Both the position numbers and the translations under genes were made by a program. The notes beneath the pieces are model-generated. The model had not been told where the DNA came from. It did no database searches and was given only the letters and a program-made list of their open reading frames with translations. 64,000 nt of DNA from positions 13,454,001-13,518,000 of the forward strand of contig OX597816.1 of the NCBI GenBank assembly GCA_951406725.2, written 5' to 3'. Below are positions 3,898 to 60,849 of the stretch, piece by piece (within the stretch, counting starts at the first letter, position 1; every line of letters begins with the position of its first letter). This DNA comes from Octopus vulgaris (taxonomy: Eukaryota).

Positions 3898-6349
3898 ATG
3901 CTGCTTAAGAAATAACAACAACAACATCAAGAAAAGATGTCTGTAAAATTATGCAAGATTAATGTAATAGGAGGATCAAAGGCAACGAGCTGACACTACA
4001 CACACATATACATGAATATATATATTTATGTATATGTTTATACATATATATATATATGAACACACACATATATATAAATTTAAATAAATAAATATATATA
4101 TAAGTATATATATGTATATATGTGTGTGTATGTATGTATTTATATATGTATGTATGTATGTATGCATGTATGTATGTATACCCATTCAACTATCGCTGCA
4201 ACAACCGAAATCAAACTACCTACGCAATGAAGCGATCCCAACAATTCATAGCTGTGATGTGTAGGGCGATTCTCACTCTATCTGATGGTGTTCCAAATAT
4301 TCTACACAGAACATACAGCTGATGATATCGAGGTAGGGTTCACTTGTCACATATTCTACTTGAGGTTTACAAAAAGGAAATTACTTAACCCAGTATAATA
4401 AGGAGCATTCTCGAAAGTACCTACTCCCCTTTGCTTCGGATCCTCCTCTTTATTCGTCTGCAGCCTCGTCAATATTTTCCCGGGGCCTCCGCACAATTTG
4501 CCCCGATCTTTCTCACGTTTTACCAAGCGTGTCTTTCCTATTCACTCAGAGCTCAGAGCTTCCTTTTTCTCTCTCTGCGGAAAAAAGATACTCCACGTAT
4601 TACAAAAGTCAACCGTATCCTCTATCATGAAAACTGAACTATTATCCAACTACCACAAATACGTGTGTGATCTAACTTGGAAGTATGCAGTCCTGGCAGA
4701 CTTTTTTTCACGTAGTTTTCACTCCGGCGTGCTGGCTATAAGCAAGACCTATATATTCCCCATACATACGTATGTCTGTATAGGCGTATAAGATTGCAAG
4801 TAAGAATCAGTAGGAGTGTCTGTGAATTTGATCCAGGCTATAATATGTACGCATTTGATGCACGCAATGGTTTCCTTTAGACGCCATATATGTGCGTGTG
4901 AATAGACGCCATATATGTGCGTGTGAGTATGGAGTGAGTGGATGGGGAGTGCATGCACATGTTTCAGCCTCTGTAACAAATCTTGTGTGAGCAAGAGCCA
5001 TTTTGTTCAGGTTTTTATCTTTGTACATAGTTAACATTAGATATATGCATATGTAAATGTGTTGAGAGTATTCATTAGCAACTATCACGAAGGTACATAT
5101 GTCGTAGAGCCGATAGTCTGAATAGCAGTGGCCATATGCACGCACACTAAAACGTCTGCCTGTCTCCCCAAAGACCTATGTACTTAAATAGACATATACA
5201 CACACATTTGCGATTAACAGAATATCAATAGAAAATAGTAATGAATATATGTATATATATATGTATGTTTGTGCTTGTATGTGCGTCTATAGCTGCGTTT
5301 ATGTGTGTAATTATACCTCTGCGAGTTGGAGTGTGTAAAAGTATGAATATTTGTATTAATATCTGTGTATATTTATTGTAGGTATAATTATATACATACT
5401 TACACATTTATTTCTGCTTATGCTATAAATGAACAAATATATTCTTTGTATGTGTGTGTATGAGAGAGGGAGAGACAGAGATATAAAGAAAAGAGGAGAG
5501 AAACAGAGGGAGAGAGAGAAAGAGTGTATACATTCGTGTGCTTTATGTATATACATGTGCGTGCGTTTATGCGTGAATGTCCTTTTTATTGACGCCTGTA
5601 CATATTTCAACTCACCTATATTATCTCCAGATATATAAACACATTTTACACGAGTCCGTATGGTTGTTTCCTTCAGAGAAGCTTTATATATGCTCATGTG
5701 TGTTTGAGACAGAATGTGCATAGCTATGTAGAAAGATATAATTGTAATATGCCTATGCATTATTGATGTACAATTGCATGTCTGCAGGCATAAATCCATG
5801 ACTGACTGTGAAAACCATATCGGAAGCTGCTAATACATAGCAACAGTTCAGAAACTAAATTACAGACTTACTTGTGCCTACATTTGTCCGATTATAGCGA
5901 ATAAATATGCCCACCGTAATCATTAATATTTAATCAAATACTCCTCTAAACTTACATCATTTTCTCACCCCCCCTCCTTGTTCGATTTTCCTTCTTTTAT
6001 ATCATGGTATGAGATTGCAAACTGGCGGGGCCAATAGAGAACTTTGATAATCTAAGCCGAGAGATTCTCGATATTCGGTATTCGGTTACTTGCACCGTTC
6101 ATAACCAACACACCCGACTCCTCGCACTTCACATAATGGACAGAAGGCTTACGATATAATACGTTGTATATGATGGTGTGTGTGTGTGTGATGGAATAGG
6201 AATCTTGAAAATATCTTAAAAGCAAAAAGAGGAACCCATTCAACTACCAAACAGTGAATCTATATTATTTACAATAATGCAAAAATGTCTTGCCTAAGTC
6301 TAAGACATGGATAGAGCATTTGCAAATGTAGAAAATCATAGGTTTCTAC

Positions 6350-6411
<62 letters not shown>

Positions 6412-6415
<4 letters not shown>

Positions 6416-6758
6416 AATAGTAAAGAGTGAAAAAACGACAGAAGGCTTAAATGTTAAAAAATATATATATTTGTGTCAAAATGTCTGGAGAATATTGGAA
6501 AAATTTTTTCCTTTCCTTAAAATGACATAATTTTATAATTTTTAAAGAAATACCGGTTTCGCGTGTAGCTTTTCAAATTTCTTGTAAAAAATTTGAAAAG
6601 CTACACGCGAAACCGGTATTTCTTTAAAAATTATAAAATTATGTCATTTTAAGAAAAGGAAAAAAATTTTTCCAATATTCTCCAGACATTTTGACACAAA
6701 TATATATATTTTTTAACATTTAAGCCTTCTGTCGTTTTTTCACTCTTTACTATTTTCT
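6412..6758. repeat. Near-perfect 347-bp palindrome (two inverted Penelope-like ends)
   Basis: Arms 6412-6580 and 6588-6758 are reverse complements with very few mismatches, with a 7-nt loop. Each arm carries CGCGAAACCGGTA (3' half of a hammerhead-like motif). It abuts (TA)n. Confidence 0.85.
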
Positions 6759-6798
6759 TATATATTCACCCACGTGCTTTACCAAACAAACTTTCTTA

Positions 6799-6837
<39 letters not shown>

Positions 6838-7259
6838 GGCAGTTTGTCTGTCTGTGTGCCTGTGTGTCTGTCAGGTTGTACCCTCACCCTCACCTCGGCT
6901 TTCAACCGATTCTGATGAAACTTCACACACACATAGTCCAATGTCATAATTCAAAACTAACGCAGCGAAAATTTTGAAAAGTCCCCCCAGTTCTGAAAAA
7001 GATCGATAAATTCGACATGGGGTCGAGAATCTAAGCTTTTTATATGCAACACATTTTCTGTCTAGGGGACACAACTCGACCTTTTTATCGCCCAAAGGGA
7101 CAGCTAGGAACATCGCATACACAGAAGTATTCGAGTGAAGAGAAGACATTGCAACCTACACATGCGCCTTCGTTCCCTAGAGGGAAAGGACTAGATTGGG
7201 ATTAGTCGTTGCCTACTAGGGGCTCTTACATACCCGGGCAATGCTGGGCTATGCTGCTA

Positions 7260-7260
<1 letters not shown>
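6799..7260 (+). mobile_element. Non-autonomous Helitron-like element (family H2)
   Basis: A|TC 5' end, subterminal GC-rich hairpin CCCGGGCAATGCTGGG, CTAG|T 3' end; no flanking duplication seen. Confidence 0.75.
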
Positions 7261-8489: not shown

Positions 8490-9148
8490 AAATCCAAAAG
8501 TTATTGGGTTACTGATAGACATGCAAACAGGATTTACAAAATACTGTTGCCTGTTATGTTTACTGTGCAACCGCGAAACCACAATCGACTCTATGTTATA
8601 TGATAGGCCACTAATAACTCTATGTTATATGATAGGCCACTAATATCAACACGTGTCCCAGTAACTAGCACTGTTAATTTTCTCTTAAGGTGATCCATAT
8701 TAAACTTGGTTTACTAAAATATTTTGGAATAGCAAGGGCTAAAATCTTCTCCAGATGAATTCCCAAATGTGAATACAGAAAGTTAAGGGGAAAAGTTTTG
8801 CTAAGGTGCGAATGAAGGAAGTTTTAGATACCATATTTGACCAAAACCGCCATACACTGGAATTATAAGTTTGGCTGACTTTTAACTGGTTATTCAAAAC
8901 CTCTCTGCTGAATAATAATTACCTGGAATATATGAGCGGAATGAGAATGTTTTTTATGCGTATAATGTCATGGTCTATCGAATGTTAATAACACAGTTTC
9001 TATTTTCTCATCTGGAATTTTTACAGATAATTTTAGTGCAGTTAACAGAGGACAAGAAGAACAGTTCCTTCAAGTTATCCATGTTATGAAAACATGGTGT
9101 CTGAGATTTCAGAATGAAAATGCAATGGCCGCCTATTGCAGGATGGAA
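8490..9148 (+). mobile_element. Decayed Chapaev3-like (CMC superfamily) transposase remnant
   Basis: Broken frames give KVIGLLIDMQTGFTKYCCLLC, IHIKLGLLKYF and LFSHLEFF..NFSAVNRGQEEQFLQVIHVM..NENAMAAYCRM. These match the recalled Chapaev3 motifs DLKV..LLGMQ.GFTKYCCFLC, LHIKLGLMKNF and HSHLDFFPENLGAVSDEHGERFHQDI..MMADYCW. Confidence 0.7.
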
Positions 9149-9149
9149 T

Positions 9150-9878
9150 GTTTGAGTTTAACCGCTCACTTCGAGATACAGAATCCCATCCTTATATCCT
9201 TGCTGCACATTTGCACAGTCTCAACCAGCCTCTCCATTTCAGGCTCTGATTTTGTGAACAGTTCTAAATCATCCATAAAGAAAAGGTTGTTGAGACGAGA
9301 TCCGTTCTTTCTCAGCTCACAGTGCACGTTGACTTTGCGTAGGACTAACGAAAAGTGGGATCAAGGTTATAACAAATGACAGTGGTAAACAAGAGTCTCC
9401 TTGGAAGATACCTCTTTTGATTGTTACCTCGACTAAGAGCTGGTTGTTACAGGAAAGACGTGTTTTCCAATAATTTTAAGGTGAAGGAGTACTTTGATAA
9501 CATAGCTCCTCGGTACTTGATCGAGTCTTTATTTTATCGACCCCGAAAGGAAGAGTGGTGATGTTTGGCTTTAGCAGGATTTGTGTATGGGTGGATGGGT
9601 GTGTTCTTAATCAGTGCACACACGTTCTCAACTATTCCACGCATGTCGAGTGTTTCTAAAATCCACGAATGCGGCAACATGTCGTAAGCCTTGTTTTAGA
9701 TTCTATCCAGGCCATGCATAAGTTTTTTGGGTACCGTTTACAGTTCTTCATTATAACCTTGTCTATGACAAGGTGATCCCTGGTGCTCTGGGATCCTTTT
9801 CGGCATCCTTTTTGTTCTACTGATAGTAGATTGTTTTCCGCAAGGAACGTATATATTTTCCCCTGCGAGGATACCTGC
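9150..9878 (-). mobile_element. R4/Dong-clade non-LTR reverse transcriptase fragment (pseudogenised, interrupted at about 9472-9603)
   Basis: Minus-strand translation: EQKGCRKGSQSTRDHLVIDKVIMKNCK..LCMAWI..KAYDMLPHSWI and IKRGIFQGDS..PL..LNNLFFMDDLELF..SKDIRMGF; frameshifts and stops present. Confidence 0.85.
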
Positions 9879-10469: not shown

Positions 10470-10685
10470 TTAATGTTGGCACAAGGCCTGTAATTTTAAG
10501 GTGAAGGAGTACTTTGATAACATAGCTCCTCGGTACTTCACTGAGTCTTTATTTTATCGTCCCCGAAAGGAAGAATGGTGATGTTTGGCTTTAGCTGGAT
10601 TTGAACTCAGAATTCAAAACCAAGAAGAATTATTACTAAGTATTTTTCCATCGTTCTCAAGATTCTGCTAGTTTGTCACATTAAC
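10470..10685 (-). mobile_element. Old diverged SINE-B-related copy
   Basis: Degenerate TTTATCGxCCCCGAAAGGAxGAA..GGATTTGAACTCAGAA core. Confidence 0.6.
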
Positions 10686-19733: not shown

Positions 19734-20390
19734 TTGAGTTGTCAGACAAATTCGTTAGTTTTTTGTTTTTTTCGATGTTATTTGAATTAACACGTAAATA
19801 TTTTTATCTTAGTGTTTTTCTGTTTTTCTTTTAATTCTTTTTTTTATTATTTTTAGTAATTCTTTTCTTCCTCGTCAACTTTTGTTTATCGTTTTTGAAA
19901 TTTGAATAATTTTTACCTCTTTGCAGACATCGGATAATGGAATGTCAAATAGGAGAAAAATGAACATTTTCAAAACCCACTTCCGTTCGCTTTCAGTCAA
20001 GGTTCCAAAGCTGTCAAAGCCTCGGTATTTCTGTTCAGCAGAGATAAGGCGAGATTAAGCGATTACGAAAAGAACAGCAGAGAAATGGTTTCCAGTCTTG
20101 AAAGAGGAAAATTTCGACTTTTAAAATTTCCAGGTTCCTGTTCAATTCAATTCAATGAGAATCATTTGACGAGCTCATCTACTGTGATCCGTACCAATTC
20201 GCTTGCGGATTAACCCAGCAAGTGGGATTTTCTCACGATGGCGTCGACTGTGACCTTCACTCGACGGCTAAGGACCAAACGACTCGAACTGCAACTCAGA
20301 ACGCTTGTTTAACACGACAAGGCTCTCCACCATTCTCACCATCATCACATTACTAATCTGATCAAAAATACTATTCAGTATTCGGGGTCA
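19734..20390 (+). mobile_element. Decayed mariner transposon (5' TIR plus transposase N-terminus)
   Basis: TIR-like TTGAGTTGTCAGACAAATTCGT. From the ATG at 19937, broken frames read MECQIGE.NEHFQNPLPFAFSQGSKAVKA..ITKRTAEKWF..LKEENFDF, like the mariner HTH region. Confidence 0.7.
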
Positions 20391-20686
20391 ATAAATTAAG
20401 TACCAGTTACGCACTGGGGTCGATGTAGTCGACTTAATCCGTCTGTCTGTCCCTTGTTTGTCCCCTCTGTGTTTAGCCCCTTGTGGGTAGTAAAGAAATA
20501 GGCATTTCGTCTGTGGCTACGTACTGAGTTCAAATTCCGCCGAGGTCGACCTTGCCTTTCATCCTTTCGGGGTCGATAAATTAAGTACCAGTTATGCACT
20601 GGGGTCGATGTAATCGACTTAATCCGTCTGTCTGTCATTGTTTGTCCCCTCTATGTTTAGCCCCTTGTGGGTTGTAAAGAAATCGG
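20391..20686 (+). mobile_element. SINE family B, 5'-truncated dimer
   Basis: Junction AAAGAAATAG|GCATTTCGTC at about 20501. Confidence 0.85.
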
Positions 20687-20822
20687 TATAATAACATTCC
20701 CAAGACACAAGATTTGTTTCAACACTGAAATTCACTCCAAGAATCGTTCAAACATTATCCAAAACCGAAATATTATTAAGTGATTTATTTAAATTATCGA
20801 TAAAAAAAAGGATGAAAACAAA

Positions 20823-21120
20823 TCTTTATATATAAAAGTCAAGTTGTGTGTCTGTCTCCTACAATTTAGATTCCTAACTACTCCCACATTTTTCGGTGCA
20901 GTGTAACCAAAACCGGATATCTTATAGTCGTGATTCATATCGAGCCCTTCTGGGTATTAGCGCGCTTCTACAATGAGTCTACGATTTAAAAAAAAATTTA
21001 CCATTATTTTTTGCCATTTTAATGCATTTTTTTGCTATTATATAAGGGAAGTAACTCTCTAAAAATGCTTATATAGTTATTTCCCTTACAAACCCGAGCA
21101 ACGCCGGGCGATACTGGTAG
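20823..21120 (+). mobile_element. Non-autonomous Helitron (family H1), copy 1
   Basis: A|TC start, subterminal hairpin CCCGAGCAACGCCGGG, end GTAG|T (CTAG in the other copy); near-identical to 33327-33710. Confidence 0.8.
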
Positions 21121-21964
21121 TTATCGATAAAAAAAAAGGATGAAAACAAATGGAAGATAAAGCGAAAGAATTTATCTGACAATCCAATAAATGACATGGC
21201 TTCGAATGAAATCGAACTCCAGTCATTCATATAACCACCGACCTCACCCTCTCACTCGGTTATTTGTATTCTACTACCACAAGTTGCTTCTAAACAGACC
21301 TTCCTTTCAAATACGGTGCAAGGACAATTTTGTTGGAAATCGATTCAAGCATTCTTAATATATCGATTTCTAACTTCGGTACAAAGCCAGGAAATTGATT
21401 AAATCGCCCTTGTAGTTATTTCAACGATTCCCAAAGGAGCAGAAATAAAGCCAACGGCGCTGAGATTTTATCTCAGAACGCACACTGACGTAACTAATTA
21501 CTTGAAGGTATTTTGTCCAATGCTTTACCATTCCCCCTCCCTCCGTCCTATCATATATTAAGAACGCTTATATCATTGAAGTCAGTTCAAATGCAGGCGA
21601 AATTCTTTCAGCTGGGAATTATTTAAACACAGAATCAGACCGTTGTGGATATGAACAGCGTTCAGATAGTTTGTTGGCACGAGATGTTAGAGAGAAGAGC
21701 ACTATGAACTTTCTAATTCATTATTTATATGTGGTAAATATCAATAAATTTTACGAGCATTACTTACACTGCTTCCCAGATTTTCTTGTCATGTTAAACA
21801 AACCCGTTATTATAACATTTGTTATTGCGTTGATTCTTATTCTTCGACCTTTTCCACTTATTTTCTTTTTTCCCTTTATTTTCTTTTTTCTTTATCATTG
21901 TTTCAAGTTATTTATTTGTAGTTCCTTCATAAATATTCGTTAGTAATATTCATACTTGTGGAGA

Positions 21965-24033: not shown

Positions 24034-24932
24034 ATTATTTGAAAAATGTTGCCACTAAGGCATTACACAGAGTAGCTTTGCGGGCTGGGCAGGAACATTA
24101 ATAAGATGAATGATAAAAAAGATGAAAATGATATTGATGGGAGAAGACAAAAATGCCCGCCGATTTTTGCTTCTCTAATATATTATTCTTTTTTTTAAAC
24201 ACAAAATGAGGTATTAAACCTCTTACGTTAATTTAACAAATCTTTTGTCTTTCACACGAAAATGAGGCAATAAACCTCTTACACTTTACTGAGACATTAA
24301 TAATCTTGCAGCCTCCTGGTAACGGTGCAGCCGCACTTCGGGTCTCCAAACAAAATAATTGAAATCTTTCTTCGAATAGCACGTTGCTATTCGAAGAAAA
24401 TCATCTTCTTTCATCAACAGTGCCACCACCTGCGGCGGCCAATGATAAGTACCAGTACAGGCCAATTCTATCAGGTCCTGCCCCACCAGAAAACTCCTTA
24501 CGAAGTTTTCAACAACCCCTCCCTTGAAATAGAATACCACATATTCTTTAATTTCACTGGGAAGGTCCACCTCTTCCGCTGTCGGTGGCACGATTCCCAC
24601 CGAAGAGACCTCGGGACATGCCGGAGGTGTGAAATGCACACCTCCGGCACTGTCTCATTCTTTTTTTCTTTTCTTTTTCAACTTTGTTGCGGGAGGGGCT
24701 GGCTCCTTCGCCATATCCTCAGGAACCTCGCCTCCACCCGCAACCTTGGGATCCCTCGGGGAGCAACCATTGTTGCTCCCATTCTTCCTCTTTCTTCCCC
24801 TTTTTCCGGGGGAAGTTACTCCCTCCTCATCCATCTCTCCTTCCGGAAGAGGAGGGGGAGTTCTGCCACAACTAACTGCTCCAGGACTCTGCTCTGGTCC
24901 TGGGGACAGTTTTTCTTAATGTGGCCAGATTC
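24034..24932 (-). mobile_element. 5'-truncated gag/ORF1-only retroelement, copy 2 (zinc-knuckle end, P/E/K-rich linker, ~100-aa C-terminal domain, 3'UTR)
   Basis: Minus strand reads ESGHIKKNCP (second half of a CX2CX4HX4C knuckle), one frameshift, PGPEQSPG..KKKRKKE*DSAGGVHFTPP..KDFNYFVWRPEVRLHRYQEAARLLMSQ* (stop 24286-24288), then a ~250-nt UTR with no endonuclease or RT ORF. Confidence 0.72.
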
Positions 24933-32109: not shown

Positions 32110-33326
32110 GATTGGCTTCAAACTTGGTAAAGTAGATTGTTGTGTGTATGTGTACGTACATACATACACATATATAAGCATATATGTATATACATTTATG
32201 TACATATATCATGTTGTGTCTCGAGAGGGTCATTACGCCAATGATAATAACACACGCACTGGTTCGATATCTCATCTTTCTTATTAGTCAATTAGTTAAA
32301 TATCTACCAACTAACTAATCGATTGTTTGTTTAATGTGCTGGGTAAACAAACGGTTGTTTGTTAGTCAAAGTCCTTACGTCGCAAGGTCTGGCTTGATTC
32401 CGTCTGGAAAGACTCGAGGCAGACCTTGAAGAGAGAGAGCAGGTCATTGAAGTGGTCGCGAATAGCAACGAAAGGGCTGTGATCAACATATATTTATATA
32501 TTCATATATTTAAAACTGAGTCCGTATAGTCACCACTCGGAGTTTGTTGTTTCTGATTTTTTCTGGGTAACTGTCACTGAGGAAACGCAGTATGCTGAAA
32601 TCACACGATCTCGTACTTCCGGAGCCCATACTCGTCTGCTAACGATATACGTCTTCTCTTAGTACCGTGCGTCTGTATGATCCATATTGAGCTAGGATAT
32701 AAAGATTGCTGTATTAATGATGCTTCCATCGCAAATATCTGTAATATATATTTATTTACATAGATGTGTGTGCATATCCACTCATACATATACACATGTG
32801 TGCGTATATATATATATATATTTATATATGTATCTATGTATATACATACATACATGCATACGTATATATACACACATATATATGTGTGTGTGTTTTGTGT
32901 ATATAATTTTCTTTTCCCATTTTCCCAAAGATATTTTTCATCCACATTTAGTCGCATATGACAGATCGTCTATAGATTATCGGAGTTGTATTGCCAAATA
33001 TTTACAAAGGTTTAGCAGAGATTAGGATAAATATCTGAAGCACTTATAAGAGTTGTATTTGTAACTTTATAAGATTAACTAAACAAATTTTGAAACCTTG
33101 CCAGTTACAACATCAAGATGGTTTTCACAATGGCTACAAAAATACGTTGATGGGATTTAGTGCCGAAGTTAAATAATACACATTGACTAAGTTCCTTAAA
33201 TATATTTGCATGATAGGAAATGTGTGTGTAGAACAGAAAATGAACGGTGTTGAATATTAAGGCGATGCTGGTGAACAGCGTTCGTGAGTTTATTCATATT
33301 TCAAATAAAATATCGTTATTACTATA

Positions 33327-33710
33327 TCTTTATATATAAAAGTCAAGTTGTGTGTCTGTCTCCTACGATTTAGATTCCTAACTACTCCCACATTTTGCGG
33401 TGCAGTTTAACCAAAACCGGGTATCTTATAGTCGTGATTCATACCTTCTGGGTATTAGCGCGCGTCTACGATGAGTCTACTATTTAAAAAAAAATTTACC
33501 ATCATTTTTTCCATTTTAATGTATTTTTTCGATAAGGGAAGTAACTCTCTAAAAATGTCTACGATGAGTCAACGATTTTTAAAAAAATTTACCATCATTT
33601 TTTTTCCATTTTTAAGGCATTTTTTTGCTATTTTTTGGCTATAACTCTCTAAAAATGCTTATATAGTTATTTCCCTTACAAACCCGAGCAACGCCGGGCG
33701 ATACTGCTAG
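33327..33710 (+). mobile_element. Non-autonomous Helitron (family H1), copy 2
   Basis: A|TC..CCCGAGCAACGCCGGG..CTAG|T; internal ~90-bp tandem duplication relative to copy 1. Confidence 0.82.
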
Positions 33711-34240
33711 TTTCAAATAAAATATCGTTATTACTATATTATGAATATAATTACTTTATTATCAATATTACTTATTTTCAAGAAGCAGTACCAGTGAAAG
33801 TTCCTTGGCCCATTTTGTTGCACAGTGTCAGATATAAACCTTCTCCCCCACTCGGGAATTATACATTGTTATTTCTTTCATAATCCTTTGACTAGTTTCT
33901 AGGAAAACTTATCTATTTCGTTTTCTCACCTAGCTCATTATCTCATTGTGACTTGTACAAAATATTCTTGTCTTCCATCAACGTCCATAATTTGCCTTTT
34001 TTCTTGATTAACAATCCTTGTACGTTCTCACTCTTAATTTCAGCTTCCTCGTTCTTCATGCGATACCTTCTATCTTCCTTTGTTAGTAAGATTTTTTCTG
34101 ACCTAGTATCTCAGTTCAAATATCACCATGATCGACTTAGCTTTTCATCTTTTTTCAGATCGAGAAAATAAACCTCTAATCGAGGTAAATGACAAGCACC
34201 ATCACCAAACCTTTTCGGCGTTGCGCCTATAAATAAAAGG

Positions 34241-35149: not shown

Positions 35150-35649
35150 AAGTAGTAGTGGTAGTGGTGATGGTAGTGTTGGAGGGAGTAGCAGCAATAG
35201 CAGTAGTAACAGCAGCAGCAGTGGTCATAGTAGCTGTGGTAGCAGCAGCAGTAGTAGTGGTAGTAGTAGTAGTAGTAGGCATAGTAGAAGGAGTAGTAGT
35301 AGTACCCAGAGGGGAGAGAATTTGTTTGGACTAAGACTTCAATGGGGAAAAAAAGGGGAAAAAAAACATCAAATACAAATTTAGGGGAGAAGGATACTTT
35401 TCTGGGAATAAATGTCAAACAGAGAAGGAGGATAAGTGGGTTTTATGAAAGTGACCCTTATATATATATAATACCCTACATATATACGTATGTATATGTA
35501 TATATATATATATGTGTGTGTGTGTGTATTATATATGTGTGTATATATATATATATATATAGCGACGGATTAGACAGAGAAACAACCAGCCAGATAGATA
35601 GATACATACATACAGACAGACGGACAAACAAACACACAGACAGGCAAAA

Positions 35650-35698
<49 letters not shown>

Positions 35699-35913: not shown

Positions 35914-36041
35914 TGTGTGTGTGATAGTGTATATATATATATATATTTATATATAGCGACGGATTAGACAGGGAAACAACCAGCCAGATAGATAGATACA
36001 TACATACAGACAGACGGACAAACAAACACACAGACAGGCAA

Positions 36042-36116
<75 letters not shown>
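34455..36116. repeat. Compound (GATA)n/(GACA)n/(TAG)n/(GTG)n/(GCA)n/(TA)n satellite block with ~110-bp internal duplication (35556-35665 / 35950-36060)
   Basis: Directly visible. Confidence 0.9.
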
Positions 36117-39770: not shown

Positions 39771-40210
39771 CTGAAGTTTTCAGTCTCTAGTAGAGTCGAG
39801 TGCTGTAATTTCAGCCATTTATACGCCAGGGAAACCGAATTTATCTGGAGTTTTCAGTCCTCAGGTTAGCAACAGATATAACTCTACGTCTCTAGTAGAG
39901 TCGAGTACTGTAATCTCAGCAATTTATACGCCAGGGAAACCGAATTTATCTGGAGTTTTCAGTCCTCAGGTTGGCGACAGATCTAACTCTACGTCTCTAG
40001 TGGAGTCGAGTGCTGTAATCTCAGCCATTTATACGCCAGGGAAACCGAATTTATCTGGAGTTTTCAATCCTCAGGTTGGTAACAGATCTAACTCTACATC
40101 TCTAGTGGAGTCGAATGCTGTAATCACAGCCATTTATACGCCAGGGAAACCGAATTTATCTGGAGTTTTCCAGTCCTCATGTTGGCAACAGATCTAACTC
40201 TACGTCTCTA
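39771..40210. repeat. Minisatellite, four 105-bp units
   Basis: Units start at 39784, 39889, 39994 and 40099 (TCTCTAGT(A/G)GAGTCGA..). Confidence 0.95.
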
Positions 40211-50035: not shown

Positions 50036-50220
50036 AACAAATAAAAATGTAGAGACGGATAACCCGAAATGTTACGTATATTAATTTATTAATGGCTATT
50101 TTACTAAAGCTGGAGAATGAAGGGCAACATTATGTCCAGTAAGGTTTGAACTAAGAACACAAAGAAGCGTAACTAAAGACTAACTGATATTTCGTTCAAA
50201 TATGTTATTTTTATTCATAA

Positions 50221-51100
50221 AAGGCGGCGAGGTTGCAGAATCGTTAGCACGCCGGGCGAAATGCGTAGCCGTATTTCGTCTGCCGTTACGTTCCGAGTTC
50301 AAATTCCGCCGAGGTCGACTTTGCTTTTCATCCTTTCGGGGTCGATAAATTAAGCACCAGTTTCGCACTGGGATCGATGTAATCGACTTAATCCGTTTGT
50401 CTGTCCTTGTTTGTCCTCTCTGTGTTTATCCCCTGTGGGTAGTAAAGAAATAGGTATTTCGTCTGTCGGTACGTTCTGAGTTCAAATTCCGCCGAGGTCG
50501 ACTTTGCCTTTCATCATTCCGGGGTCGATAAATAAAGAACCAGTTTCGCACTGGGATCGATGTAATCGACTTAATCCGTTTGTCTGTCCTTGTTTGTCCT
50601 CTCTGTGTTTATCCCCTGTGGGTAGTAAAGAAATATGTATTTCGTCTGTCGGTACGTTCTGAGTTCAAATTCCGCCGAGGTCGACATTGCCTTTCATCCT
50701 TTTGGGGTCGATAAATTAAGAACCAGTTTCGCACTGGGATCGATGTAATCGACTTAATCCGTTTGTTTGTCCTTGTTTGTCCTCTCTGTGTTTATCCCCT
50801 GTGGGTAGTAAAGAAATAGATATTTCGTCTGTCGTTACGTTCTGAGTTCAAATTCCACCGAGGTCGACTTTGCCTTTTATCCTCTCGGGGTCGATAAATT
50901 AAGAACCAGTTACGCACTGGGGTCGATGTAGTTGACTTAATCCCTTTCTCTGTCCTTGTTTGTGCTCCCTGTGTTTAGCCCCTTGTGGGTAGTAAAGAAA
51001 TAGATATTTCGCATTGGGGTCGATGTAATCGACTTATTCCCTTTCTCTGTCCTTGTTTGTCCCCTCTATGTTTAGCCACTTGTGGGTAGTAAAGAAATAT
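50221..51100 (+). mobile_element. SINE-B concatemer: one head, four ~183-bp units and one deleted unit
   Basis: Unit starts at about 50271, 50454, 50637, 50820 and 51004. Confidence 0.92.
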
Positions 51101-51869
51101 ATATTATTTTTATTCATAAGGTGTGGTAATTAGAAAATATGAATTGAATTGATCTCATAACACAGAATTCAATACGCTAAAGTTGTTGCCATTTGTGAGT
51201 TACATCAACACAACGTACACACATCAATATGACATTTCAGATATTCTGGAAAGGATGGAGATACGCTCATTACTTTGTGATTCAGTATTAACGATCCAGC
51301 ATCATCAAAAGTGGATCATAAACTCAGCTAAACGAAATATAAGCAGCAGAGCCACCGTAAGGGACGAATGTGCAATATTTCCTCATACAATTCGCAGTGG
51401 ACTTGACTTTGATAAGAAAATGGCGTTATATTTCAAGTGGACAATAGAGATGAGGAAATGCAAACGAACCATGAGAGAGGAACGTTCAATAAACGTGCAT
51501 GTAAAGCTGGGCTTCTTTCTCCGAACTGAAAAACACTAAAAAACACATATTAGTGATTTCTGTAACTGAAATAAGGTAGAAATAACAACGTACCTGAATA
51601 TTCAATGATAATAATTATGAAATGCCTTACGTAGGCATATTGAATGATAGCTTATAGCATCTATATTTCGTATTGTGTTCTATATTTATTTATTGGACAT
51701 TTCTCCAATATTGCAGGTTTACTTAAAAGCAACGAATATATTAATGCTTTGTGCCGAAATATGCTGAGCTCATAAACTAATACAGAAATCTACAGAGGCG
51801 CAAATCCTGCTCCTCCGCACATCCCTACGGTCGACACGAGTATCTGAAATTTAAAGTCTGTTTTGCGCG

Positions 51870-56060: not shown

Positions 56061-56893
56061 TGGTGCTCTAATATATATATAACACCTCCACAGCATTATA
56101 ATGATACATGTAACCTTTTATATAAAATTCGTATATTTTTAATACGCTAAGGTCTTCAATTTTTTTAGTATAAACGCATAATGTGAAAGATGTCTTAATA
56201 ATCTAAAACTGAATGTAAAAAAAGTGGCGTTTATACTGCGTTGAAAATTTATCGTATTGTTTTGTAGAAAACCATATCGATGAAAGAAATGTCTTTTGTG
56301 AAACAGTAGTCTTTCCGGTGAAACTTTAACCCCCGAAGAATTTCTAATCATTAAAAAACGAGGTATCCAGAAAAATCGCTAATAAAACCGTTGAATTGTT
56401 AAAAAGACATTGGAAATCAATTTGAGATGCCACCTATTTTACACATTTTATAAAATAAAGAGATAGCAATTTTTATGAAGACAATGCTGCGTTATATGAG
56501 AATGCAAAAATCGTTGCAAAAAAATTGCAAAAAAAAAAGTGGCTGTGATAAAATTACTGAGAAGGTTATAAGGTCTATGTTAGAAACTAATATTTCAAAT
56601 ATGAAGTATGGAGATCATTCAGATAACTTGAAACGTTTAAGCAAAGATTCAATGCAAAGAGATATTGATGAAATATCTCTGAATATTGATGAGCAATTAG
56701 TTGAAAGATGGAAAACGTTTTTTCCCTCAATGCGAGCTGATGAGCCCAGAGTTTTCGATAACGATCTTCTCATGGCGTTTGTATGTTACTTAAATAATGG
56801 CGGTAAATTGAAAGACGATATTTTTTTATTCTATAGATACTGACACTGCAGGAATAACTTGCTTTTATTGCTTTAACCCTTTGCTTGTCCTGT

Positions 56894-57273: not shown

Positions 57274-57348
57274 TGCCTGTCCTGTGTATCACGTGTGATA
57301 TACATATATATTTCCCTAGCATCTGTGCATCATATATGATACACATAC

Positions 57349-57745
57349 AAGGCGGCGAGCTGGGCGAAATGCCTTGCGGTATTTCGTCTGCCGTTACGTT
57401 CTCAGTTCAAATTCCGCCGAGATCGACTTTGCCCTTCATCCTTTCGCGGTCGATTAAATAAGTACCAGTGAAACACTGGAGTCGATATAATCGATTTAAT
57501 CCGTTTGTCTGTCCTTGTTTGTCCCCTCTGTGTTTAGCCCCTTGTGGGTAGTAAAGAAATAGGTATTTCGTCTGCCGTTACATTCTGAGTTCAAATTGCG
57601 CCGGGGTCGACTTTGCCTGTCATCCTTTCGGGGTCGATAAATTAAATACCGGTTACGCACTGGGGTCAATATAATGGACTTAATCCTTTTATCTGTCCTT
57701 GTTTGTCCTATCTATGTTTAGCCCCCTGTGGGCAATAAAAAAAAG
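57349..57745 (+). mobile_element. SINE family B dimer
   Basis: Junction AAAGAAATAG|GTATTTCGTC near 57563; TSD ATATATGATACACATA. Confidence 0.88.
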
Positions 57746-58073
57746 ATAAAAATATATATGATACACATATCCATTTTTTAAAACCTCCACAGTAACTTTA
57801 GGCTTTTTGAAGGGAAGTTCTATTACACAGGACGTGTAAAACAAGGGCGAGCTAAAAGTCAGACAACAAGCATGGACGTTTATAACAAACTTATAAAAAT
57901 GCTTTGGACAGGCAAAGGTTTAAGGTTCCGGTTTGAGTAAAAGCTGCATTAGAACATTTCGTATTGACTGCCCCTGGGCTACCACAAATGTCGGAAGACA
58001 TGGATGCTTCATACGTAGCACATTTGATAAAACTTACTCTGGGATCATTGCAATGGATCGCTTTATTCACAGA

Positions 58074-59035: not shown

Positions 59036-59901
59036 CCATTAGAAGTCAGATGTCTCTCCAAGAGAAACTACTTACTATGATTTATAAGCCTTTATGATAC
59101 GCTGGTTAAACTTTCTAGAAAGTAGGAGGCGTATGAATATCTAAAGAAAGTAAACAAATATAAAAATAGCATATATTATTTAGTTTGGATATTTTGAAAG
59201 TTTAATGAGGCATAATTTTAAATTCAGGGAAAATCTGTTACGTTGATTGATTGTAAAATAATATTGGAAGCATTTAGGTAAGGAAAAAAAAATGGAGAAA
59301 CTTTTTCAAGCAAATTTAATTCTAGAAATATTTTACAGCAAGCTTGAGATGGCGAAAAAAGTCTTTTACTTGACAAAATGGATCTTGAAATATATTCTGG
59401 ATACTTATTATCGTTAAAAATGAGTAAGAACAAAAAAATAAAAATTTCTTATGTGTTCCTTTGAAGTAAAACCATTCATGATAGACGTATTTTGTTGCGA
59501 TGATGGCGAATGTAAAAATATATATATATAAAAGAATTTATCGAATTACGATACTACGATAGCACAAAATATCTCTTTTTTTTATTTCCTGAGCACTAAT
59601 AAGGCTGGTTACCCAGTTTTCATGTATAAAACCGAGATCACAACATCCTCCAGCCCGAGCCCAGCGTCAGTCTCCTTCAGGTTCCAAAGCCAGTGGTTTT
59701 GCGCAGGAGGAGGCAAATCAATTACATCGACCCCTGTACTTCACTCATACGTTGTTTTATCGACCCCGAAGTGATGGAAAGCAAATTTGAGACCTCGGCG
59801 GGATTTGGACCCAGAGCGCAAAGGACCAAAAGAAATGCCGTTATGCATTTCGTCCGACGGTCAAATGATTCCGCCAGCTCACTGCCTTAGCACCAAATAT
59901 A

Positions 59902-60162
59902 ATAAATAGTAAATGCGCCCTTTTAAATCCTAACCAGGCTCGTGGGCCCGGTTTCTCGGTTTCAATGGCGTATGTGTTCCTCAGCTGGACGGGACGCCAG
60001 TCCATCGCAGCGGCGCTCATTTTTGCCAGCTGAGTGGACTGGAAGAACGTGAAATGAAGTATTTTGCTCAAGAACACAACGCGTCGCCCTGGTCCAGGAA
60101 TCGAAACCACAATCTTATGATCATGATGCTGACACCCTAACCACTAAGCCACGCGCCTCCAC
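59902..60162 (-). mobile_element. SINE family D (full length)
   Basis: TSD AGCACCAAATATA at 59889-59901 and 60163-60175. Confidence 0.88.
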
Positions 60163-60849
60163 AGCACCAAATATAGATATGATAAAATAAGAAAGACTGG
60201 ATTTTGGTCACACTGAACTAAGAGTGCAAAGACCCGGAAGAAACGCCGCTAAACATTTTGTCCGACGTTGTTACGAGTCCGCCAGCTCACTGCCTTAGCA
60301 CCAAATATAGATATGACAAAATAAGAAAGTCTAGATTTTGGCCATTAAAACATTCTAAAACACCATAACCAATGTTTTGGGTGGAAATTGCTAGAAAATA
60401 ATTGCGTTTGCCAACATCGTTGAAGCTGCGTATATTTTGGCGAAACAGTTCACTACATAACGAAATTGGACGTTATACAGAGTGACATAACAATGAAGTT
60501 CATGATATTGAACCGAAGAATCTATATTTAGCAGAAAAAGCATCAATCCCAAGGATATTAAATAAAAGTGTTTGAAGGAATTTCTTTAATTAATTTTTTG
60601 TGACAGTTGCCGTCTAAAAATATCGTGGACAAAAGGAAGCTGCCTTTGGAAAATTGTTACGAACCAGTGATGTATAAAATAAAGAAAGACTGAAATCCGA
60701 GTCGTTAAAAGACTCTAAAAGACTAACCAATGTTATGGAACGAAATGAGAACAAAATAATTGTGTTTTCCAGCATCATGTATAATTGAAGATTGGTTTGT
60801 TTTGGTGAATAAATTACTGAATAAACTAGATTACAGGACGTAAGTTACA

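Follow-up and report, generated by a model that had tools for sequence, protein, structure and literature searches.

Helitrons are described as lacking target site duplications (TSDs) in the sections of the literature drawn on here (PMC11417382, PMC4778049, PMC5876387, PMC5397611, PMC10095026), and this absence is treated both as a defining feature of the group and as evidence of single-strand integration. For the canonical Helitron1 (HLE1) elements, represented by Helraiser and Helibat, the cited excerpts give a 5′-TC, a subterminal palindrome, CTAG-3′, no terminal inverted repeats, and insertion at one AT step without duplication that leaves the junctions A|TC and CTAG|T (PMC4778049, PMC5876387). 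HLE2 elements, as described in part of another account, insert between T and T, not between A and T (PMC11417382). There is precedent for HUH elements with TSDs anchored at a target motif (PMC3627910, PMC10288648). The Chlamydomonas elements CRe-1, -2 and -3, which are Helitron2-type and encode Fanzor1, carry TSDs with the left edge at the family target motif, but these TSDs follow TTTT, vary in length (about 7–19 bp, some 44–443) and lie mostly on 5′-truncated copies, copies ending at the consensus 5′ end being TSD-less in the portion of the source considered (PMC3627910). Replitron-1/N1 of Chlamydomonas, also an HUH transposon, has a TSD that includes the target dinucleotide (PMC10288648), together with a Y1 Rep without a helicase, terminal direct repeats, fuzzy right ends and a variable TSD length (PMC10288648, PMC9977147). 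Helentrons and HINEs, including DINE-1, are rolling-circle elements that depart from the canonical AT rule, having TT or poly-T targets, different termini and an AP endonuclease, and the part of their description used here mentions no long duplication (PMC4067079). Experiments have addressed what happens at the donor during Helitron transposition, whereas the opening and resealing of the target is much less clear. With AAV Rep78 at AAVS1, an HUH nick in the target primes synthesis and the target is partly duplicated, a likeness to the elements described below, although that integration is viral and site-specific and its duplications are long and imprecise.

Here we describe two copies of an element, H1, that lie in a 64-kb window of the Octopus vulgaris genome (the whole stretch of DNA that was analyzed), together with a different element, H2, used for comparison. 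The features are as follows.

20794..20822, + strand: left duplicated segment of H1 copy 1, 29 bp, containing an A8 run
20823..21120, + strand: H1 copy 1, 298 nt, from 5′-TC to GTAG-3′
21121..21150, + strand: right duplicated segment of H1 copy 1, 30 bp, containing an A9 run
33299..33326, + strand: left-hand repeat of the duplicated 28-bp host segment at H1 copy 2, preceded by A, first base T, last base A
33327..33710, + strand: H1 copy 2, non-autonomous Helitron1-type element, 384 nt, from 5′-TC to CTAG-3′
33464..33657, + strand: internal tandem duplication of a ~94–100-nt unit, 80% alike, in H1 copy 2 and single in copy 1
33683..33698, + strand: subterminal GC-rich palindrome/hairpin, ending 8 nt ahead of the terminal CTAG
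33711..33738, + strand: right-hand repeat of the duplicated 28-bp host segment, next base T
6799..7260, + strand: H2, distinct from H1 but likewise non-autonomous and Helitron1-type, its hairpin related

The preliminary description of this DNA had reported an exact 28-bp direct repeat around the second H1 element, and this holds: positions 33299–33326 and 33711–33738 are identical over all 28 nt (28/28) and abut the 384-nt element. The identity extends by 0 nt to the left and by 1 nt to the right, the latter being the T common to the element's 5′-TC and the base after the right repeat. Around copy 1 the repeats are 29 and 30 nt long, and their sole difference is one A in the A-run. As was also claimed, the repeats of the two copies are near-equal in length (28 versus 29/30 nt) and unrelated in sequence, which indicates that the flanking repeats are host DNA. 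The copies themselves differ at 14/288 aligned bases (4.9% divergence), with which the repeat identity at both loci fits, and copy 1 is without the internal ~94-nt duplication seen in copy 2. Both have precise element ends, with no tail, no truncation and no microhomology beyond one T. No coding capacity was found in H1 copy 2, folding of the target segments gave nothing notable, a search of plasmids and phages returned no further H1 match, and the window holds no paralogous empty site for either flank. The observation is real and unusual, and its weight is limited by the number of H1 copies within the 64-kb window (n = 2 only) and by their having been picked for looking odd.

Judged by the sequence of its ends, H1 is a non-autonomous Helitron1 (HLE1). 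A 5′-TC follows a host A in 2/2 copies, and the CTRR-3′ end followed by a host T, which completes the Helitron1 pattern, reads CTAG|T in copy 2, where the 5′ junction is A|TC, and GTAG|T, one substitution away, in copy 1. The GTAG at 21117–21120 is the terminus of copy 1 and may be a post-insertion mutation of CTAG or a tolerated variant end. The palindrome that Helitron1 elements carry about 10–20 nt from the 3′ end is supplied by 33683–33698 in the predicted fold. Other classes fit less well: the junctions A|TC and TAG|T do not lie between T and T as in HLE2; the copies have no element-owned terminal direct repeats in common, as a Replitron would; and both show precise TC and hairpin-TAG ends in place of the 3′ tail, 5′ truncation or RNA-derived head of a SINE inserted by target-primed reverse transcription. 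Searches of the entire window for tRNA and Rfam families came up empty, a weak test, as the window's SINE-like repeats are unmatched too. What sets H1 apart from the Helitron1 pattern is the target, where 28 and 29/30-nt duplications stand in place of a single AT without a TSD. Because of this departure we regard H1 as a variant of Helitron1 insertion.

The 3′ hairpin folds, yet its stability does not exceed that of shuffled sequences (z −0.4 and −1.1), and evidence on the hairpin type was therefore sought outside the window. GTDB bacterial and archaeal contigs, scanned once for the hairpin-plus-terminus motif, yielded seven loci (L001–L007), none of them H1. L001 and L005 look like chance motif matches in GC-rich DNA; the remaining five (L002, L003, L004, L006, L007) resemble eukaryotic Helitron pieces within MAG contigs, and such contigs are most likely host DNA binned into MAGs. 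L006 carries a 404-aa PIF1 helicase frame that ends ~200 nt ahead of the hairpin motif, and the best PDB match of this helicase is Helraiser (7LCC, E 1.5e-65). A helicase frame next to the motif and closest to Helraiser argues that the hairpin type belongs to RepHel Helitrons. These relatives match H1 over the terminal 30–40 nt only and are not members of the H1 family. As flank comparisons, L002 and L006 were dropped for having no visible 5′ end and L004 for being a head-to-tail CTAG|TC array of a 986-bp unit, so that L003 and L007 are the only GTDB loci with both ends visible, the 5′ end of L007 being uncertain (G before TC).

The arrangement of the target is the same at both H1 loci. The host segment between two A|T steps is present twice, the element 3′ end abutting the T that belongs to the upstream AT step and the 5′-TC abutting the A that belongs to the downstream one. 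In accordance with the preliminary description, all outer repeat edges of both copies (4/4) are A|T, versus 1/12 edges for six SINE-type TSDs of the window. The Helitron junction rule itself dictates half of these bases at H1; for the other two, a post hoc calculation from window frequencies (AT 0.089; A and T 0.31) gives a chance match of ~0.08 per copy and ~0.007 for both copies. Nearer AT steps were passed over, those at offsets 3, 7 and 19 inside the copy 1 segment, where 29 was used, and those at offsets 7, 12, 14, 20 and 26 inside the copy 2 segment, where 28 was used.

To gauge how often such repeats arise by chance, pseudo-elements were slid over unmasked window sequence and scored for an abutting exact repeat of at least 12 nt. 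At 384 nt, 11/40,318 pseudo-elements had one, of which 2 were the H1 copy 2 locus itself and 9 came from one reiterated repeat at 59894–60285. At 298 nt, 28/40,718 did, all from one tandem array, the H1 copy 1 locus being missed because of the indel in its repeat, and at 461 nt the count was 0/39,914. Among 35 repeat blocks checked, a flanking repeat of at least 20 nt was present at the two H1 copies only (0/33 others). H2, which resembles H1 in terminal motifs only, has no flanking repeat, the longest near its ends being 5 nt, so the earlier contrast between 2/2 H1 copies and H2 stands, with H2 a weak control because a (TA)n tract makes up its right flank. No flanking repeat was found at L003 or L007 either, where an offset-free scan of L003 gave at best 16/30. 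The count is thus 2/2 in H1 versus 0/3 in H2, L003 and L007, all with a like hairpin, which indicates that the duplication is not general to Helitrons with the H1 hairpin type. The family-specific character proposed in the preliminary description has these five elements as its basis. The six SINE-like blocks, chosen for their abutting TSDs, have TSD lengths of 8, 9, 12, 16, 16 and 19 nt.

Several other repeated structures occur in the window. A ~360-bp palindromic (fold-back) element at 6404–6765 ends 33 nt upstream of H2, and its arms are ~98% complementary over the 67 nt compared. Tandem arrays of a 183–184-bp internal unit of the SINE-like repeat lie at 50217–51103, 57348–57753 and 20374–20693; a single 16-bp TSD encloses each of the first two, which suggests that each array was inserted or expanded as one unit. 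At 39783–40210 a 105-bp unit occurs four times, 93% alike, with an open frame of 35-aa repeats. There is also a ~113-bp direct repeat at 9471–9583 and 10491–10603 (spacing 1020 bp) that resembles part of a dispersed repeat, and a duplicated microsatellite-rich block at 35554–35660 and 35948–36050 (spacing 394 bp).

We consider it likely that the H1 repeats are true TSDs, made as RepHel integrated the element using two A|T steps 28–30 nt apart. The description of the repeats as TSD-like and near-fixed in length fits both copies, and further backing comes from the A|T edges, from the nearer AT steps that were skipped, and from the contrast with the 8–19-nt SINE-type TSDs. Each join conforms to the RepHel target rule and has microhomology of at most one T, so both would be the work of RepHel. 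Weighing against an integration-made TSD are the relevant parts of the Helraiser and Helitron literature, in which these elements in general make no TSD (PMC4778049, PMC5876387), the three elements with a like hairpin and no repeat, the GTAG terminus of copy 1, and the element-free tandem duplications of like size in the window (below). H1 thus shares its ends with canonical HLE1 elements and differs from them in using two AT steps with the DNA between doubled; unlike CRe-1, -2 and -3, its copies are full-length Helitron1 elements with the target motif at both edges of a 28–30-nt duplication. Our literature search, with Repbase Reports, Dfam and subscription journals outside its scope, returned no full-length Helitron1 family with a near-constant long TSD and the target motif at both edges. 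A 2026 repeat annotation of Octopus vulgaris lists 84 Helitron families, 8 of them recently active (PMC13282606), and the terms 'TSD' and 'target site' are absent from its text and the one supplement considered.

A transposase acting on a single strand doubles the target segment only if that strand is copied again, which makes displacement synthesis the simplest route. Our tentative preference within the TSD reading is for a nick followed by strand displacement. At the first A|T, RepHel would nick the top strand of the target and so free a 5′-T, to which the element 3′-OH would be joined. The target 3′-OH would then be extended by strand-displacement synthesis, aided by a Pif1-type helicase, over a distance that protein would measure as >26 nt, near the size of an RPA-bound long flap. 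When the next A|T is reached, the 5′-TC would be transferred to the newly made strand, and the element together with the duplication would be fixed by replication or repair. Yeast Pif1 and Pol delta make ~30-nt RPA-bound flaps in vitro, according to the part of the report used here (PMC6409922); that such a flap could act as the ruler for 28–30 nt is speculation by analogy, with the ruler based on two lengths. A possible but less favored alternative is that RepHel nicks one strand at one AT step and the other strand at a second, AT being palindromic, and that a double-stranded element is joined before gap filling. This would be compatible with the double-stranded Helraiser circles reported in an excerpted source (PMC5876387), and the sequence fits the two routes equally and cannot tell them apart.

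Apart from integration by RepHel, the explanation that survives best, though we think it unlikely, is that H1 belongs to a TSD-less Helitron1 family whose two insertions here gained their flanking duplication through sporadic host flap or gap repair, or landed in existing tandem duplications. The window contains an exact 29-bp tandem duplication of unique sequence at 8588–8645 and a near-exact 25-bp one at 4878–4926, each with no element inside, so the host has other routes to double such segments. A rare TSD is also on record in otherwise TSD-less Helitrons, 1/200 in Helitron-1N1_CRe in the portion of the study used (PMC3627910), and n = 2, chosen after the fact, leaves room for rare events. 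The edges of both background duplications, however, are not A|T, and both of the two copies would have to have undergone a rare event that left lengths no more than 2 nt apart and outer edges that are A|T in 4/4 cases. A separate idea, that the 29-nt duplication at 8588 is a footprint of H1 excision, was discarded, since the edges of that duplication are not A|T.

The preliminary description had raised an extra endonuclease domain in the autonomous partner as a point to check, and this idea did not find support. An AP-EN, GIY-YIG or Fanzor activity of the partner would cut the second strand 28–30 bp from the HUH nick, an arrangement that we regard as quite improbable. Helentrons carry AP-EN (PMC4067079), and help from Fanzor has been proposed, as speculation, for Chlamydomonas Helitron TSDs (PMC10288648), but AP-EN is reported in HLE2 only in the consulted part of a further account (PMC11417382), while the ends of H1 are those of HLE1. 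The window holds no RepHel remnant or autonomous partner, with 0 tblastn hits from 120 RepHels as queries and no RepHel Pfam match in the 150/215 window ORFs scanned, the 65 shorter ORFs being covered by tblastn. Two protein-like open frames were noted along the way, one at 24289–24654 (−) with no Pfam match and an empty homolog search, the other at 56454–56840 (+) with no Pfam match and with weak, unnamed Atlas clusters. With the L006 helicase as query, 8,000 candidates were scored, and 2,545 proteins reached an E of 1e-50 or lower. The best 120 of these 2,545 relatives include none with a nuclease Pfam beyond Rep and none with an AP-endonuclease or GIY-YIG family in their Pfam listing. Here PF14529 stood for the AP-endonuclease family. 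Among the 120 listed, 116 extend at most 150 residues past the matched helicase stretch, and the four with longer tails show no nuclease on rescan. An AP endonuclease after the helicase is thus absent in L006, where the frame stops ~200 nt ahead of the hairpin, and in these best 120. Since no named match is a cephalopod, the idea is lowered only. In addition, an unrelated nuclease would leave the A|T at the second edge unexplained.

Very improbable, in our view, is a retrotransposon-style TSD, made either when LINE or Penelope machinery inserted H1 RNA by target-primed reverse transcription or when a LINE-type endonuclease cut the target. TSD-bearing SINE-like elements are abundant in the window and long TSDs are possible from LINEs, as part of one report describes (PMC9977147), but H1 has exact Helitron termini on both sides, is neither tailed nor 5′-truncated, and the SINE-type TSDs are short (8–19 nt) and rarely edged by A|T (1/12). 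More doubtful still is an assembly artefact, in which a merged heterozygous insertion or a contig overlap of about one k-mer gave doubled flanks. Lengths of 28–30 are close to common k-mer sizes; against this, the copy 1 repeats differ (A8 versus A9), lengths differ between the loci, the window is without N, 0/33 other repeat blocks are alike, and a merge would not select A|T edges. The least probable is allelic recombination between two H1 insertions at neighboring AT sites, giving the left flank through site 2, one element and the right flank from site 1, which would explain all A|T edges with canonical chemistry but needs two independent same-orientation insertions <30 bp apart, twice and at near-equal distance.

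On balance, we lean towards H1 representing a Helitron1 lineage in which the transposase, as a rule, leaves a 28–30-bp TSD set by a ruler between two AT cleavage sites. If this is true, a transposase of the HUH/helicase type would produce a long TSD of fixed length, and H1 would preserve a fossil record of the Helitron integration step, either a target nick with displacement synthesis or a double nick. The constant 28–30-bp duplication, edged on each side by the target dinucleotide, would be a measurable signature of the target step, testable against Helraiser, and annotation rules that assume no TSD would misdescribe such families.
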